DNA of 64,000 nucleotides from an uncultured Verrucomicrobiae bacterium. GTDB taxonomy: Bacteria; Verrucomicrobiota; Verrucomicrobiia; Limisphaerales; UBA11358. The DNA lies in assembly GCA_963764035.1 (NCBI GenBank), contig CAVXQV010000009.1:177939-241938 (forward strand). The letters run 5' to 3'. Positions 830 to 62,257 of this stretch are shown one piece after another. The position numbers and the translations under genes were made by a program. Each line of letters begins with the position of its first letter. The first letter of the stretch is position 1. The notes beneath the pieces were generated by a model that was given only the letters and a program-made list of their open reading frames with translations, was not told the origin of the DNA and did not search any database.

Positions 830-1102
830 GTGTCTATAAGCACAGAGGCTGTGTTTGCAAGCACGGTCATTTTGTTTGCAATCAGAAAAAGCGTGTTTCC
901 AAGCACAACGTCCGTGTTCGCAAACAGAACGTTCGTGGCTATAAACAACGTGGCCCTGTTTGCAACCAGAGTCGTCGTGTTTGCCTTCACGATGTTCGTG
1001 TTTGGAAACACCGGAACCGTGTCGCGAATCACAACAACTTTGTTTGCAGGCAGAAACAGCGTGTTCGCAATCCGGCCGTTTGTGTCGGCAAACAAACCGC
1101 TC
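830..1102. repeat. Degenerate tandem array, 13 x 21 bp, palindromic core GTGTTTGCAAACAC plus 7 variable nt
   Basis: Units in exact 21-bp phase from 830 (gtgtctataagcacagaggct, gtgtttgcaagcacggtcatt, ttgtttgcaatcagaaaaagc ...) to 1082 (gtgtcggcaaacaaaccgctc). Confidence 0.9.
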
Positions 1103-1359: not shown

Positions 1360-2007
1360 ATGAAAAAAACCACAGTAAGTATGGCATATCATCGGCTGCC
1401 GCCGCAGATGGTGGTTTCGGTCCTCGGAACCGTCATCACGGGAATGAAGGACAAGGCGGATCTTCCCAATCCGCCCGTGCCCCTCGAACCCGCGGTGCCG
1501 CCGGATCCGAATGCACCCGTGGACCTGACCACGCGCAAAGCACGGCTGGAAGCCGCGATTGAAGCGTCGGCGGTCGGCGGACAGGCGGATACGGCGGCCA
1601 AGAATGATGCGCTCGAGTTTGCCCTCGACGGATTAGACCAGGAGGCGTTTTACGTCCAACTGGTCTATCGTTACAACGTCACGGGCGTGCTCTCCACCGG
1701 CTTCGTGCCGGCGAGCACCAACCGCGCGCAGGTGGCATTGGACACTCCCGCCATCAGCAGCATTGACTCGGACGTGCCCGCGCAACTGACGTTGCACGTG
1801 ACGCCCATAGACAATGCGTATGGCTACGAGGTGCAGACGCGCACCGGCACGGGCGAATGGACCACGGTCCTGTATTCGTCCGCGGCGCGCTCGATCGTCC
1901 TGCCCGGATTGACCTCCGGCACGGCGACCGGCGTGCAGGTGCGGGCGCTGGGCGGCCTCACCGGCTACAGCGCCTGGAGCATGGCCGTCACGCGGTTCGT
2001 GCCCTGA
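1360..2007 (+). CDS. Hypothetical cytoplasmic protein, N-terminal helical region plus C-terminal fibronectin type III domain
   Basis: 215-aa ORF with no signal peptide. The C-terminus YGYEVQ...W...LPGLTSGT...VQVRALGG..GYSAWS..V is FN3-like. Followed by a terminator. Confidence 0.8.
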   Translation: MKKTTVSMAYHRLPPQMVVSVLGTVITGMKDKADLPNPPVPLEPAVPPDPNAPVDLTTRKARLEAAIEASAVGGQADTAAKNDALEFALDGLDQEAFYVQLVYRYNVTGVLSTGFVPASTNRAQVALDTPAISSIDSDVPAQLTLHVTPIDNAYGYEVQTRTGTGEWTTVLYSSAARSIVLPGLTSGTATGVQVRALGGLTGYSAWSMAVTRFVP

Positions 2008-8819: not shown

Positions 8820-9412
8820 GACGGACATCCTGGCAGGTTGGCCCGGACAACACGCATACAATCGGCGGATATTTCCGGAGCAGCCGTGCATACCGACCGA
8901 GGGTTGAAGGCGTCGGGCGGAGGACTGAAGATTTACCAATGACGATTTGCGAATTGCGAATTGAAAAGGGCGACCAAATCAAAACGCTGAAATCCGCGTC
9001 ATCCGCGGTTAATTATTTTCCCCGATCAACCCTCACCTGTCCAAGCGTCTTCCCTCATCCGGCTTTGCCACGTTGACTCACTCGCTCCCGCTCACTCGGC
9101 CCTTGCGGGCTTTCGGCCCTGCCAAACTCCTCTCACCGTTTCCCGAACGGTTCGAGTCTCCCGCCACCGCAGGCGAAGGGATTTTTCCCGGCTCCGGCTG
9201 TTGGAGAGCCTGGATGAAATTATCCATGCCGGCCGGCAGCGCCCGGTTCTGCCGGCATGACACTTATGTCTCCTCCAAATAGAGGTTCCCGGCGTGACGC
9301 TTGCCTTTAATCTGATAAGCATTTTCCCTATCCGCCGCGTTTCGCCGGCCCTATGCGCGCGTGTCATAAAATGAACTTGAATGCCCGGCAGTCTGTCAGC
9401 TAATCTTGTATC

Positions 9413-18120: not shown

Positions 18121-18923
18121 GGTATTAAAAGAATTTCCGGGCGCAGTTGGCCGACGAATTGGCTGGGCATCCGCGGGTCAATCGAACCGGGCACGGGACT
18201 TTCCGGCCCGACGTGGCCGTCCGCAAAGGCGGCGTTGGCCATTTGCGAATGGCGGAAGTGGCCGTTGGGATAATTGTGCGGGTTGCCGTAATTCGTCTCC
18301 AAGTCCAGGTAATACCATTCCTTCAATTCCACCGCGGCTTGAAGAAAATCGTCCACGGACGCGGCGTCGGCAAACGAGGCGGTGTCCGCCGGGTGCAAAA
18401 GCCGGCTGGCGTTGACGCGTGGCTGGCTCGGATCGGGAAAGAGATAGCGGTTGCAGCCGTAACTGAAAATGGTGTTGGTGCCCTTGGGCTGGAATTGCGG
18501 ATTGACGTCGCGGTTCAACAGCGGACAAAGCCGCACGTCGCTGACACGCACATAGCGGAACAGCGCGCCGCGCGAGAGGTCAAACGCGCGCTGGCCGTCG
18601 GTGCCGCTGGCGAGCCAGCCGAACCACCAGGATTTGCCGAGCAAATTGGCGCTGGTCCAAAGCGGAAAACCGTCACCGCCGTTGTCGTTCCAGTATAATT
18701 CCACGGCCAGGCCCAGTTGCCGCAAATTGCCCTCGCAGGCGGCGCGTTGCGCGGCGGCCCGGGAGCGCGCCAGGACCGGCAGCAACAGCGCCGACAAAAT
18801 GCCGATGATGGCGATGACCACCAGCAGTTCAACCAAGGTGAAGGCGTTTTGATTTCGTGGCCGCCGACGTGGGAAGGGCCCAATTCGACATCGCAAATCG
18901 CAAATCGCAAAACGTAAATTCAT
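18117..18923 (-). CDS. Prepilin-type N-terminal methylation / H-X9-DG (DUF1559-like) protein
   Basis: [25 protein letters not shown]...[10 protein letters not shown] at the N-terminus and [15 protein letters not shown] at the C-terminus. Start approximate. Confidence 0.9.
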
Positions 18924-29839: not shown

Positions 29840-29965
29840 CTGACGGCTGCTGGTCAGTGACCGAGGAGCGCTGGCCAGTCACGGACAAGCGCTGGTCGGT
29901 GACCGAAGAGGGCTGGTCAGTGAGGGACAAGGAGCAATCAGAGACGGACCGGGAGCCATGGCAGC
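29840..29965. repeat. Degenerate 21-bp tandem array (about 6 units), dyad core GGTCAGTGACC
   Basis: ctgacggctgctggtcagtga / ccgaggagcgctggccagtca / cggacaagcgctggtcggtga / ccgaagagggctggtcagtga / gggacaaggagcaatcagaga / cggaccgggagccatggcagc. Confidence 0.75.
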
Positions 29966-58656: not shown

Positions 58657-59160
58657 TCAATGTCCGCCAAGCTGCAGCCGGGTGTCGGCTTCGAGCAGGG
58701 TTTTGAGGTTCGCCCAATGCGCCTCGTTCATGTCGTTGAAGGCGTTCAGATAAACCGCCACGGTTTCCGGCGGATATTTTCCGAGCAGGATTTCAATCGC
58801 CGCCTTCAAATTCGCGTCGTCCATGGCCGCCGGCAAATCCTCCACCACGCCGTCCTTGTTTTGGATGCCGAGCGCGGTCAGGAAATCCACCAGCATGGCC
58901 CTGTGCTTGTTCACCAGCCAGGCGCGGACCAGCCCGCCGGCGGCGGTTTCCAGCGCCGGGCGCGCCAGCGAGGCAATCATCTCGGCGTGCTGCTGGGCGC
59001 GGGGCTGGCGTTCCAAAAAGACCGGGCGCACGCGCCGCATCTGGGCGACGGCGGCCAGCGTGGCCTTGTAAACCGGCTTGTCCGACTCGTGGGTGAAGGC
59101 GACAATTTCAGCCGCCAGCGCCGGCGACATGAAGCCGAACAGTTCGTGGGAGGTGAGCAT
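58657..59160 (-). CDS. Hypothetical protein
   Basis: 167-aa ORF with typical codon usage (RRVRPVFL...MLVDFLTALGI...VAVYLNAF). Confidence 0.7.
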   Translation of the reverse strand: MLTSHELFGFMSPALAAEIVAFTHESDKPVYKATLAAVAQMRRVRPVFLERQPRAQQHAEMIASLARPALETAAGGLVRAWLVNKHRAMLVDFLTALGIQNKDGVVEDLPAAMDDANLKAAIEILLGKYPPETVAVYLNAFNDMNEAHWANLKTLLEADTRLQLGGH

Positions 59161-59479
59161 AATTTTAACCCCGGATGAAAACGGATTTACGCGGATGAAA
59201 AATCAAATCACTGTTGGTTGACACTTCAATACTCTGCGAACCGGCTGCGATGCTGTAAAGTATTTAATCGCCGCCGGCTTCCAAAACGGTTTCCCGCCGG
59301 TTTTGGGGAAGGCAATTAAAATCACTTTCCTGACAAAATAGGGAGAGCCGCATTTGGCGGAACCGTTCACCATGTCCGCCATCAAGCTTCCAAAACTTCC
59401 CTCACCTCCCGCGGGGTCCTCCGCGTGGACGGGTGAATTCCGCCGGCTTCCCGGCACGTTCCCACCGGCATTTAACGAT

Positions 59480-59772
59480 TTCGCCGGAGGCATTTTCGCG
59501 TTGCCGGAGGCCGGCCGGATTTTCCCGGATTCATTCCACGGTTTCCCGGAATCATTTTGCGGGTTCCCCAAACCATTCCGCGGTTTCGCGGAATCATTGG
59601 ACGCGTTCGCGGAACGATTCCGGGAGTTCGCGGAATCATTTGACGGTTTCCCGGAACCATTCCGGGCTTTCGCGGAATCATTTTTAGAACCCGAAAAATC
59701 ATTCCGGGAGTCCGAAAAATCATTTGACGGTTTCGCGGAATCATTCCGCGAACCCGCGGAATGGCCTGGAAA
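59480..59772. repeat. Degenerate tandem array, about 14 x 21 bp, dyad core CGCGGAAT-C-ATTCCGCG
   Basis: 12 in-phase units from 59521 (tttcccggattcattccacgg, tttcccggaatcattttgcgg ... tttcgcggaatcattccgcga, acccgcggaatggcctggaaa) plus two decayed units upstream. Confidence 0.92.
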
Positions 59773-59863
59773 CCCCGCTTTTTCGCAAAAACCGCCCAAA
59801 AATGCCAGTTACCACCCCTTTCCCTTTCCGTAACCACAACACTGACCAAAAAAAGACAAAAAA

Positions 59864-60559
59864 ATGAAATCCGATCCAATACAAAAAAAAGACCTGGCCT
59901 TTGCCGGCCAGATGAACACGTTCAAAACCAACATCCCCACCTACGCGACCGTGCTGAAACTGACCACCGACCAGGTGTCCGGCCAGGCGGCGGACGCGGC
60001 GGCGTTCGACTACTGGGTGAAGTGCATGAACATCATGCACAAGGACGCGCAGCAGTTCACGAACTGGAAGAACCTGTTGCGCGACGGCGGCACCCCGCCC
60101 TCCGGCGGAGCGCCGGGCGTGCCGGTGCTGCCCGACCCGGTGCCGGACGTGGCGCCGGGCATCGAGGCGCGTTTCCGCGCGCTGGTGCAGATCACCAAGA
60201 ACAGCACCAGCTACAATGTCGGCATCGGCGAGGCATTGGACATCGAGGGCGCGCAACAGAACCCGCCGGATTACAGCACCTTGATGCCGGTGCTGACGCT
60301 CCGCATCAACGGCAACCGGGTGGAAATCGGCTGGGGCTGGCAGGGCTACGCCGCCTATCTCGACCAGATCGAACTTCAGGTGGATCGCGGCGACGGCAAG
60401 GGTTATGTGGTGCTGACCTACGACACCACGCCCGGCTACACCGATCCCACGCCCTTTCCCGCAACCCCGGCCAAATGGATTTACCGGGGGATTTACCGCT
60501 TGAACGAGGCGCAGGTCGGCCAATGGAGCAGCCCGGTGAGCATCACCGTGGGCGGCTGA
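59864..60559 (+). CDS. Hypothetical cytoplasmic protein, N-terminal helical region plus C-terminal FN3/Ig-like domain
   Basis: 231 aa, no signal peptide. Helical N-half and Pro-rich segment, then VEIGW...IELQVDR...YTD...WIYRGIY...VGQWSSPVSITV. Confidence 0.82.
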   Translation: MKSDPIQKKDLAFAGQMNTFKTNIPTYATVLKLTTDQVSGQAADAAAFDYWVKCMNIMHKDAQQFTNWKNLLRDGGTPPSGGAPGVPVLPDPVPDVAPGIEARFRALVQITKNSTSYNVGIGEALDIEGAQQNPPDYSTLMPVLTLRINGNRVEIGWGWQGYAAYLDQIELQVDRGDGKGYVVLTYDTTPGYTDPTPFPATPAKWIYRGIYRLNEAQVGQWSSPVSITVGG

Positions 60560-60573
60560 TTCTTAAACGCAAA

Positions 60574-60599
60574 ACGGGGCTTGCTCCGGCAAGCCCCGT
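60574..60599. terminator. Stem-loop after the 59864 gene (putative terminator)
   Basis: acggggcttgc-tccg-gcaagccccgt, 11-bp stem; A-tract upstream, no T-tract downstream. Confidence 0.5.
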
Positions 60600-60913
60600 C
60601 GCGCGTCCGCCACGCAGTGACGATTGACAATAGCCCGCCGTTTCAACGGCGGGTTTTTGATTTGAAACCGGCGAGTCCTGAAGGGACGACCGAAATAAAT
60701 TCCCACGTTTCAGCCGCCCCTGTGGGGCTTGGTTCGTTTCCGGTTTTATCCCGCAGTTGAAACTGCGGGCTATTTTCATTTGTCCCTTCGGGACTGAAAT
60801 GATCCGCTTTGAAAATTGTGCGAGGTTCCGATTCGTGGGTGAAATTCAAAATGCGTTCACCAGCGTGGGCGACATGAAACCGAATAGTTCGTGGGAGGTG
60901 AGCATTGGGGAAA

Positions 60914-61174: not shown

Positions 61175-61993
61175 TCAGATTGTCGTGAGCGAGATTTTAT
61201 TCTTCCGGGCCAGCGCTTCACAAGTTTCGCGTTCCAGCAACAGCGTCTTGCCGGATTCGAGCGCGAGCACCGCCACGCCGCTCTTCGCGCAAACTTCCAG
61301 CGTCTGCGGGCCGATGCACGGGATGTCGAAGCGCATGTCGTGGTCCGGCTTGGCCACCTTGACGGCCACCGCGCCGCCGTCCCTGCCCGCCAGCCCGCCG
61401 CCGCGCGCGAGGCATTGGTCCGTGCCCTCGAACGCCTCCACCGCCAGCACCGCGCCGTTTTTCACCACGACGGTCTGGCCGATTTCCAGCCGCGAGGTTT
61501 CCCGCGCGATGCGCAGGCCGAATTCCACGTCGGCGGTTTGCCCGTTGGAAAGCTTCGGGCCAAGATTAAATTCCTTTCCGGGCATGAGCGGCGCGAGCCA
61601 GGGCGTGGCGTCAATCAATTCCACGCCGTCCTTTTTCAATTCGTCCGCAATCGCGCCGAAAATGGTATGGGCATTTTTCTCCTTGAGCCGGAGCAGGAGG
61701 CCAATCGTCCGCAAATCGGGCCGGAGGTCGTAAAGATTTTTCGGCGCAATCTGGCCGACCATGACGCATTGCGTGACGCCGCGGTCGGTGAAGGCGGCGA
61801 TCATTTTGGAGAGCTGGCCGACGCGCAGCCAGACGATGTCGTCCACGAGCGGCGCGAGCGCGGGGTCCGTCTCGTTCTCAAATGCGACGGCCACCAGCTT
61901 TGTCACGCCGGCCGCGCGGGCGAGCCGGGCGAATTCCAGCGGCAGCGTGCGGTTGCCGGCGATGAGGCCGAGGGATGCAGGACCGTTGCTCAT
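61175..61993 (-). CDS. lpxI: UDP-2,3-diacylglucosamine diphosphatase LpxI
   Basis: LGLIAGN..LP; EIGQTVVV...VLAVEAFEGTD; VKVAKPDHDMRFDIPCIGPQT. Confidence 0.92.
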   Translation of the reverse strand: MSNGPASLGLIAGNRTLPLEFARLARAAGVTKLVAVAFENETDPALAPLVDDIVWLRVGQLSKMIAAFTDRGVTQCVMVGQIAPKNLYDLRPDLRTIGLLLRLKEKNAHTIFGAIADELKKDGVELIDATPWLAPLMPGKEFNLGPKLSNGQTADVEFGLRIARETSRLEIGQTVVVKNGAVLAVEAFEGTDQCLARGGGLAGRDGGAVAVKVAKPDHDMRFDIPCIGPQTLEVCAKSGVAVLALESGKTLLLERETCEALARKNKISLTTI

Positions 61994-62032
61994 TCCGGCA
62001 ACGAGTGTCGCGCGACCCGCCACCGGTGACAA

Positions 62033-62106
62033 GTGAAACGTGAAACGTGAGGGAAACCCGTCTGTCGTCCTGCCGCCATTTCACGCTTCACGTCTTACGT
62101 TTCACG
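62033..62106. repeat. Inverted heptamer tracts (GTGAAAC)n / (TTTCACG)n
   Basis: gtgaaac-gtgaaac-gtga ... tttcacg-cttcacg-tcttacg-tttcacg. Confidence 0.65.
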
Positions 62107-62257
62107 TTCCAAGCCCCTTGTCCAGTTTTTGGAATGCCTGTCTCATTCGACGAAAACCGGCAGGAGGCGTGGCTCTCAACTCCGGCTCAATTTCCCGCCA
62201 AACGTGACGACTTGCACGCTGGGAGGACATGGCGCGCAGATTGCTTTTCAGGCCTCG

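Follow-up and report, generated by a model that had tools for sequence, protein, structure and literature searches.

A 21-bp tandem array and a gene for a helical-module and FN3 protein form a recurrent, patchily distributed pair in a Verrucomicrobiae genome

Near either end of a 64,000-nucleotide stretch of DNA from an uncultured Verrucomicrobiae bacterium (the window), a row of 21-bp repeats stands upstream of a gene for a small protein, and the repeats of the two rows differ. This raises the question of whether array and gene make up one unit, as the initial annotation proposed in preferring a recurrent functional unit to chance, and if so what a row of repeats of fixed length has to do with the protein encoded beside it. 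The locus and its counterpart at the other end of the window (instance 1) comprise the following features.

849..1072, + strand: instance 1 array, period 21, with a different dyad
1360..2007, + strand: instance 1 gene, 215 aa, of a different family with the same plan
59252..59312, + strand: upstream segment, candidate promoter or leader region, present in loci L001 and L002 (by eye)
59479..59772, + strand: tandem array, 14 x 21 bp (11 units well kept), imperfect dyad
59773..59830, no strand: 3' tail with short A/T tracts about one helical turn apart, common to close homologues and to a gene-less copy at C2:255568
59864..60559, + strand: 231-aa gene, helical module (1-125) and FN3 domain (134-231), from the ORF, an AlphaFold model and a fold search
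60573..60600, no strand: GC-rich hairpin of 12 pairs, putative terminator, 13 bp after the stop (listed as terminator-like on the minus strand)

The array at 59479-59772 consists of 14 units of 21 bp with no indels. Its 11 central units match the consensus at 13-20 of 21 bases and the three edge units at 9-11 of 21; identity at a lag of 21 is 0.59, against 0.251 ± 0.026 (maximum 0.34) in 2000 shuffles, and TRF returned periods of 21, 42 and 84. The unit is a significant imperfect dyad (r 0.69, p 0.003), and 91 bp separate the end of the array from the ATG at 59864, so that the initial description of about 14 units with a given consensus, a dyad within the unit and a position close before the gene was borne out in each respect. 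The variable positions of the units are drawn from related variants that recur between units, and there are no unique spacers. A gene-less relative of the array lies elsewhere in the same genome (C2:255568, 75.5% identity over 143 bp). In both 90-bp array flanks the autocorrelation of A/T tracts peaks near 10, 20 and 30 bp, compared with a flat profile in control gaps, and the density of IHF-like sites is about twice that of control gaps (1.03 against 0.48 per kb). No sigma-70 consensus was called in the upstream segment at 59252-59312. Per-unit RNA hairpins were considered and rejected: within a unit the two arms form pairs at 59 of 88 positions against 61.2 expected, the folding energy of the array is no better than that of unit-order shuffles, and the arms within a unit show no covariation. 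Rfam has no family at cutoff over the array. Elsewhere in the window a short third period-21 array of about 5 units lies 5' of a histidine kinase gene (29849-29956, under the scan threshold), and 7-bp tandem repeats occur at 637-666, 8943-8963, 18890-18919 and 62033-62108; the A+T content inside the 21-bp units also peaks at period 7.

The 231-aa reading frame is a real gene, with 663 homologues by word search, and a profile search of its branch gave 2021 clusters at 50% identity; where the origin of a relative is named, it is usually Verrucomicrobia (6 of 8 locus titles). Neither this protein nor the 1360 protein matches a family in Pfam, NCBIfam, PHROGs or PADLOC. The AlphaFold model (mean pLDDT 93.9) has helices at residues 10-27, 35-74, 100-113 and 119-124, a Pro-rich loop and a C-terminal beta-sandwich, which is the plan that had been read from the sequence, and inspection revealed no hydrophobic signal stretch, in keeping with the proposed lack of a signal peptide. 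A hairpin had also been noted shortly after the gene and is present at 60573-60600. The beta-sandwich (residues 134-231) is of FN3 type (Z about 11, rmsd 2.1-2.4, about 90 residues aligned), despite the lack of a match to Pfam fn3. When folded alone, the helical module gave no fold match above background (best Z 5.6), with four-helix-bundle entries, for which Avd and IVP proteins were considered, also at background level (2gsc Z 4.6, 8ub7 Z 4.5); there was no DNA-binding fold among the matches listed, and ESM Atlas gave no usable match. For the 1360 protein, ESM Atlas returned hypothetical clusters only, with 20-25% fn3 in two of the three listed. The protein family is net acidic (mean charge -4.8), with a charge of about +0.7 for the helical module, which carries seven near-invariant Lys or Arg residues.

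Comparison of the two proteins of the window qualifies the earlier statement that they match in size and plan. The architecture is indeed shared, but the proteins belong to different families, BLASTP between them is not significant, and the HHalign match of the families (58.7%, E 9.5e-5) covers residues 105-230 only, with the N-terminal modules alone reaching 1.7%. At the level of sequence profiles, homology is supported only for the last helix and the FN3 domain. Several family members (P0110, P0122, L008 and several matches of about 290 aa) have a conserved frame of about 60 residues, rich in aromatic residues, Pro and Asp, before the usual start, which may be a genuine N-terminal domain. 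When longer fused forms were sought, 3 of the 7995 candidates scored were matches, all of which were discarded, two as array read-through and one as a fragment on an RCC1-repeat protein.

We then asked how often arrays and such genes stand together. A lag scan of the 4.56-Mb assembly, which is 70% complete, found 152 arrays of period 21, compared with 9 at period 14, 3 at 28 and 0-1 at each other period from 15 to 36. A second scan gave 15 arrays at 41, 25 at 42 and 4 at 45, and none at 37-40, 43, 44 or 46-49; some of the 42-bp arrays overlap period-21 arrays. The 152 arrays fall into 87 sequence clusters by BLAST, so that more than 80 unrelated unit sequences coexist in one genome. Fifty-three of them lie upstream of genes from nine families, which were modelled from array flanks, with one unrelated FN3 match dropped before the pairing counts. 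By a more sensitive score, arrays precede 28 of the 34 genes of the 1360 family, 6 of 8 in the 59864 family, 20 of 26 in five all-helical families and 11 of 15 in a winged-helix family, whereas random 900-bp windows reach the score in 4.5% of cases at period 21 and 0.13% at period 24; six 1360-family genes and two 59864-family genes have no detectable period-21 array. The ninth family, with arrays before 1 of 4 genes, is probably unrelated. At homologous loci of the 59864 family elsewhere, each with at least 450 bp of upstream sequence and with the query's own locus left out, an array is present in 87 of 90. Arrays are thus placed non-randomly with respect to such genes across the genome, and the preference for a recurrent unit over chance is upheld. 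The divergent intergenic setting, to which significance had also been attached, was rejected as a rule, since all four orientation contexts occur (38/38/31/26). No recurrent partner gene was found at 106 loci, whose flanks were covered to 1.5 kb on each side in most cases.

About two thirds of the arrays (99 of 152) have no intact family gene detectable by the models built here; some of these precede broken family genes or helical genes that were not modelled, and 42 of the 99 cluster by BLAST with a gene-linked array. Further small helical or helical-plus-sandwich genes, outside the nine families, lie behind arrays 27, 45, 73 and 136 (C2:307381, the C3:173000 region, C5:288191 and C13:286985). 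The winged-helix family consists of genes of about 109 aa (L092, C5:162407-163070, and 14 paralogues); the one member tested is ArsR-type, above the Pfam cutoff. In several of these genes a promoter-like site starts 34-36 bp before the ATG, which suggests leaderless transcripts. Near-perfect 8-bp tandem repeats were seen in the leader, 5' of a 21- or 41/42-bp array, at eight loci (L055, L056, L076, L099, L100, L106, L135 and L136).

The length of the repeat follows the build of the protein. Proteins with one helical module and an FN3 domain pair with 21-bp dyads. Five genes of the genome encode proteins of 308-320 aa with an extra helical segment of about 100 aa, and all five have 41/42-bp arrays. 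HHalign matches the second module of these long proteins to the 1360-family module at 98%, and their extra segment to this second module weakly (17%, E 0.0015). A search of 401 genomes produced 30 long-family loci, 24 of which were full length with enough upstream DNA; 41- or 42-bp arrays are present in 22 of the 24, or in 19 of 21 when two loci from the query genome and one duplicate are removed. The dyad of these units extends over the whole unit, which is not two 21-mers, and half-unit repeats are weak (r at most 0.36). No 41-only array was found in the 90 loci of the one-module 59864 family, and the exception to the rule is one single-module 1360-family gene with a period near 20.5/41. Six long-family loci (L128, L133, L134, L152, L154 and L155) have a conserved ORF start common to their leaders, together with a short palindrome that precedes the 42-bp array by 60-90 bp.

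Symmetry also follows the build of the protein, with 21-mers that are less symmetric before the all-helical relatives: the dyad score is 0.62 before module-plus-FN3 genes (n=25) and 0.42 before all-helical genes (n=20; Mann-Whitney p 1e-5). We would expect such a difference if module-plus-FN3 proteins were dimeric and all-helical proteins were two-module monomers, where the reading of two modules comes from length and from pattern by eye; HHalign detected no internal repeats in the all-helical proteins, and cross-family module homology was mostly not detected. Among 65 homologues, which are related and non-independent sequences, similarity of arrays tracks the helical module more closely than the FN3 domain (partial rho 0.40 against 0.15), with peaks at residues 13-27 and 55-69 that persist after removal of the query's clade; signals at single positions include FN3 residue 204. 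Because the pairs are not independent, we treat this covariation between array and module sequences as a lead only, and a residue-base code was not separable from shared descent. B-DNA has about 10.4-10.5 bp per turn and A-form RNA about 11. Periods of 21, 41 and 42 fit the former and not the latter, and together with the phased A/T tracts of the flanks they favour a role on B-DNA. A protein that generated or copied the repeats would, however, lead to the same rule linking period and architecture.

How the unit came to its present position can be read in part from its borders, where two host genes enclose a pair of direct repeats.

58657..59160, - strand: conserved host gene at the left border, directly following lpxI in relatives
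59083..59165, - strand: left copy of the flanking direct repeat, the 5' end of the intact gene at 58657-59160 (core 59115-59160)
60608..60795, no strand: two facing Acido-Lenti-1 matches (Rfam), a separate repeat inside the same insertion
60827..60907, - strand: right copy of the flanking direct repeat, a stub from the 5' end of the gene at 58657-59160 (79.5% over 83 bp; 46-bp core at 91%)
61175..62032, - strand: lpxI, host gene at the right border

Of 34 matches in relatives, 29 loci were retrieved, and in 26 of these a distance of 6-239 bp separates lpxI from the conserved gene, compared with about 2 kb here; neither an array nor the 231-aa gene lies within 1.5 kb of the orthologous site in any of the 29. 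The idea that array and gene might be gained or lost as one block agrees with this synteny, both being missing from all 29 sites. The block at 1360 is duplicated whole on contig C10 of the same genome (97% over 1334 bp). The 59864 family is patchy, occurring in 7 of 24 same-genus genomes and in 30 of 301 in the class (the query genome included in the 30). No transposase of its own was found in the unit, and no relatives were found in viral contigs, phage records or plasmid records. Taken together, the unit behaves like selfish DNA, being patchy, copied within the genome and decaying to gene-less arrays, with no transposase. Within the same insertion, the Acido-Lenti-1 matches at 60608-60795, of 44.6 bits (above the 37-bit cutoff) and 35.3 bits (below it), flank a REP-like segment; this Rfam family may be a dispersed DNA repeat.

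Flanking gene-end duplications mark the query unit and 10 of 99 gene-less arrays, against 1 of 150 random sites. The rate is nevertheless similar in array-free gaps of matched length, with 5 of 53 gaps of at least 1200 bp with arrays against 7 of 161 without, and 1 of 85 against 4 of 404 for gaps of 600-1199 bp, and the duplication was rejected as a signature specific to the module. Since it marks array-free gaps at a similar rate, it probably reflects a general, homology-assisted insertion. Twenty intergenic gaps, with or without arrays, contain inserts bounded by copies of a host gene's 5' or 3' end (30-137 bp, 69-97%). A search for long direct repeats at array loci found gene-end duplications of 38-234 bp, which are not array-specific, and when three families were aligned, the ends of the region they share were ragged and showed no terminal inverted repeat. 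Arrays have also entered coding sequence. An array with its tail is inserted in frame in a leucyl-tRNA synthetase gene (C1:527088-527478, L195) and is missing from the corresponding loop of 13 relatives (the 13 recovered by pattern, of 19 loci), and a second in-frame period-21 array lies in an alanyl-tRNA synthetase gene (C2:35892-36098, L196); we take the two genes to be these synthetases from their sequence motifs. The leucyl-tRNA synthetase of another genome (L203, G415) carries in the same loop an unrelated, non-repetitive insertion of about 125 aa.

One further feature, absent from the earlier reading of this DNA, bears on whether the array acts as DNA, as RNA or as coding sequence.

59372..59833, + strand: upstream ORF of 153 aa, ATG-started and stop-free across the array, its frame kept open in homologues

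This sense ORF encloses the whole array. When arrays of the 59864 family are aligned in register, 55 of 65 loci have no stop in one particular sense frame, against 23 expected, whereas the antisense frames are stop-free in 5, 22 and 23 against 7, 18 and 17 expected. The open frame contains 16 stops against 84.8 expected, and TAC, TAT, TGG and TGC are barely depleted. ATG-started ORFs that span the array are present on the sense strand at 44 of 51 loci (33 of them in the conserved open frame), against 19 on the antisense strand; the sense ORFs mostly terminate 10-80 nt short of the main ATG. When 150 arrays are pooled, there is no period-3 conservation, and stop depletion is equal on both strands and matched by TAC, with TAG depleted no more than TAC; the non-coding reading that these pooled arrays gave was overturned for the 59864 family by the register-aligned stop test. 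There is no synonymous excess in the open frame (0.28 against 0.26 expected), and changes are spread evenly across codon positions. Some readings of the array-encoded heptad peptide look amphipathic, with starts that follow promoter-like sites, and an open sense frame is lacking in 17 of 61 gene-linked arrays. In eight 41-bp arrays, whose units cycle through all frames, there are 4 sense stops against 20 antisense (six loci lower in sense, two ties), and in the long family a covering ORF is found in 16 of 21 loci in sense against 11 in antisense.

The presence of a covering ORF goes with the position of the promoter, as judged with a sigma-70 matrix that gave no promoter call in 73 of 106 loci, the query included. 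In the 59864 family a promoter-like site lies 5' of the array in 13 of 50 loci and downstream in 1 of 50, while in 1360-family genes it lies downstream of the array in 5 of 19; a sigma-54 promoter was not supported for the 59864 family (2 of 51 before the array, 2 of 51 after). Across families, covering ORFs occur at 15 of 18 loci with an upstream promoter, compared with 4 of 15 with the promoter between array and gene (Fisher p 0.0016, for loci that are not independent). Among winged-helix genes an ORF covers the array in 1 of 11. Because stops are common there, and a promoter-like site lies between array and gene in 4 of 11 loci against 0 upstream, the array before these genes can be outside the transcript. 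It appears that translation matters, and not the peptide; we read the open frame as the outcome of selection that keeps a long leader translatable where the array is transcribed, rather than of selection on the peptide.

Since the repeat length doubles where the protein of relatives has an extra helical module, the protein likely binds its own row of repeats. From such sequence comparisons we consider it somewhat probable that the unit is a mobile cassette whose protein binds and coats its own array on double-stranded DNA, thereby limiting its own expression, and which spreads selfishly. The 21-bp array and the downstream gene would be a single unit, with the protein binding the array cooperatively, probably as one dimer per repeat, and this binding would coat and bend the region and repress transcription of the gene. 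Each helical module of about 100-120 aa would read about one helical turn. Dimers of one-module proteins would then sit on 21-bp dyads and dimers of two-module proteins on 41/42-bp dyads, and an all-helical protein with two modules would bind an asymmetric 21-mer as a monomer; the bend would be carried on by the phased A-tracts. If the array separates promoter and gene, as at this locus, stops would probably be kept out of it to let ribosomes occupy the long leader or to couple its translation with that of the main gene, and the cassette would persist and spread as selfish DNA. The pairing, the rules of period and symmetry, the phasing of the flanks, the open frame and the empty site are observed; the binding, dimerisation, repression, role of translation and selfishness are inferred. 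Counting against an action as a DNA site are the net acidic protein, the helical module with no match to a DNA-binding fold, and the open frame, which is strong in the 59864 family and would not be predicted from a pure DNA site. A bolder reading, which we find doubtful, is that these proteins make up a naturally occurring family with a new fold that reads DNA in a modular and sequence-specific way: a module of about 100 residues would correspond to one turn, modules would act serially, the build of the protein would set the length and symmetry of the site, and a few residues in helices 1 and 2 would set its sequence. Each gene would then tag the chromosome with its own array and spread as an enzyme-free selfish cassette. 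If true, this reading would explain why many bacteria have 21-bp repeats of fixed length.

Other explanations give the array a different part. It might act in the transcript, the protein binding a repeated RNA leader or ribosome passage through the upstream ORF controlling termination or coupling, with feedback at the RNA level. The promoter-like sites 5' of the array (13 of 50 loci against 1 of 50 3'), the covering ORFs (44 of 51 sense against 19 antisense) that mostly end 10-80 nt before the main ATG, and the coincidence of the two (15 of 18 against 4 of 15) all point this way. We nevertheless think it unlikely, because promoter-like sites lie 3' of the arrays before ArsR-type genes and before 5 of 19 1360-family genes, the periods fit B-DNA, the A-tracts of the flanks are phased, hairpin compensation is absent and no Rfam family is found at cutoff. 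Very unlikely, in our judgement, is the proposal that the array is a coding region, the upstream ORF and the gene forming a two-gene operon in which a peptide of 7-residue repeats would be the partner of the helical protein. It would account for the frame open in 55 of 65 loci, the starts after promoter-like sites, the amphipathic look of some readings and the covering ORFs of the long family (16 of 21 against 11), but synonymous excess is absent, changes are even over codon positions, period-3 conservation is lacking over 150 arrays and no sense frame is open in 17 of 61 gene-linked arrays. Moreover, with a unit of 41 bp no single frame can yield a repeating peptide, but such units avoid sense stops in every frame (4 against 20 antisense in 8 loci).

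A further explanation, less likely than RNA-level feedback, is that the protein writes or maintains the array, serving as a ruler for a step of slippage, recombination or copying by which repeats of footprint length accumulate and spread, with no regulatory role. This would explain the period rule, the lack of indels despite a unit identity of 60-85%, and the many gene-less copies (42 of 99 clustering with a gene-linked array) and in-frame insertions in the synthetase genes. Against it, no catalytic domain or family was detected in the protein and no conserved partner in the flanks of 106 loci, the unrelated winged-helix family shares the same period, and DNA binding would still be required. 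Finally, a host nucleoid protein could use the array as its platform, or the array could be a neutral satellite; the gene next to it would then be a passenger with the same insertion hot spots. In favour of this explanation are the 99 of 152 arrays that lack an intact family gene by the models used, the IHF-like density of the flanks (1.03 against 0.48 per kb) and the unrelated small repeats within the insertion, and a nucleoid role is suggested in the available part of Subirana and Messeguer (PMC8161180). We hold this very unlikely, as it leaves unexplained that period and symmetry vary with the architecture of the neighbouring protein, and likewise the 87 coexisting unit clusters and the pairing in 87 of 90 loci. 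The arrays are, in addition, a hazard for annotation: they give rise to false ORFs of 7-residue repeats and to false N-terminal extensions (P0121, P0122), and can occur in frame within essential genes.

The pairing of array and gene has counterparts among known systems. ParR/parC, SopB/sopC and Omega are plasmid centromere or operator arrays with a cognate binding protein. The parS-ParB system of pCXC100 is another (PMC3074162); as described in the part of that paper available, degenerate tandem sites adjoin the gene of a cooperative, autoregulating binder, and here the adjacency is seen and the binding predicted. The present unit differs in being chromosomal, with dozens of paralogous copies per genome, in its C-terminal FN3 domain and in a repeat length that scales with protein length. 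There is no Pfam match to a ribbon-helix-helix or ParB protein and no such fold among the matches listed, and the flanks of 106 loci (mostly 1.5 kb a side) contain no deviant Walker A motif that would mark an NTPase partner; in the window, the neighbours of the 59864 unit are lpxI and a conserved hypothetical gene. REP/REPIN elements with their RAYT transposase likewise have a gene flanked by its own type of repeat and gene-less copies scattered between genes. The present unit shares this arrangement but has no match to an HUH (Y1) transposase in Pfam or NCBIfam, and its array is head-to-tail and phased rather than made of paired hairpins. BrickBuilt of Porphyromonas gingivalis (PMC4596501), as far as its available description goes, is a dispersed intergenic minisatellite MITE with an imperfect 23-nt tandem array between conserved flanks, its copy number varying by whole units; it has a single unit sequence, terminal inverted repeats and no gene, whereas here the unit is particular to each family, the ends are ragged and a gene is linked.

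CRISPR, TIGR and VIPR arrays, with periods of 60-79, 18 and 5 nt in the accessible portion of a recent preprint (bioRxiv 10.64898/2026.10.21.760802), resemble the present locus in that a periodic array lies next to a gene for an uncharacterised protein. They differ in that no repeat alternates with unique spacers here, the core units being identical to one consensus at 13-20 of 21 positions, and the same portion of that preprint, on periodic intergenic arrays, mentions neither a 21-nt class nor fibronectin. The literature searched, which covered few subscription journals, held no description of the array-gene pairing. The closest precedent for the arrays themselves is the constant-length repeats of Subirana and Messeguer (PMC8161180), described in its available part as bacterial tandem repeats of 20-21 nt with variable sequence, several families per genome, lying mostly outside protein-coding genes and unexplained. 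The fixed unit and the many families per genome are common to both (here 152 arrays in 87 clusters), and the available part of that paper mentions no neighbouring gene family, 41/42-bp class or rule linking period and protein. Its repeats are defined as not encoding amino-acid repeats; here codon-type conservation is absent, but an open upstream ORF covers the array in the 59864 family. Repeats of 21 nt with fixed length and variable sequence are thus a published puzzle with no mechanism, which the pairing with a protein that binds them would explain. If binding holds, the family, with 2021 clusters in this branch alone, would be an extensive natural collection of proteins matched to their sites, in which a recognition code might be legible, and the puzzle becomes testable through the rule that links the length and symmetry of the repeat to how the neighbouring protein is built.
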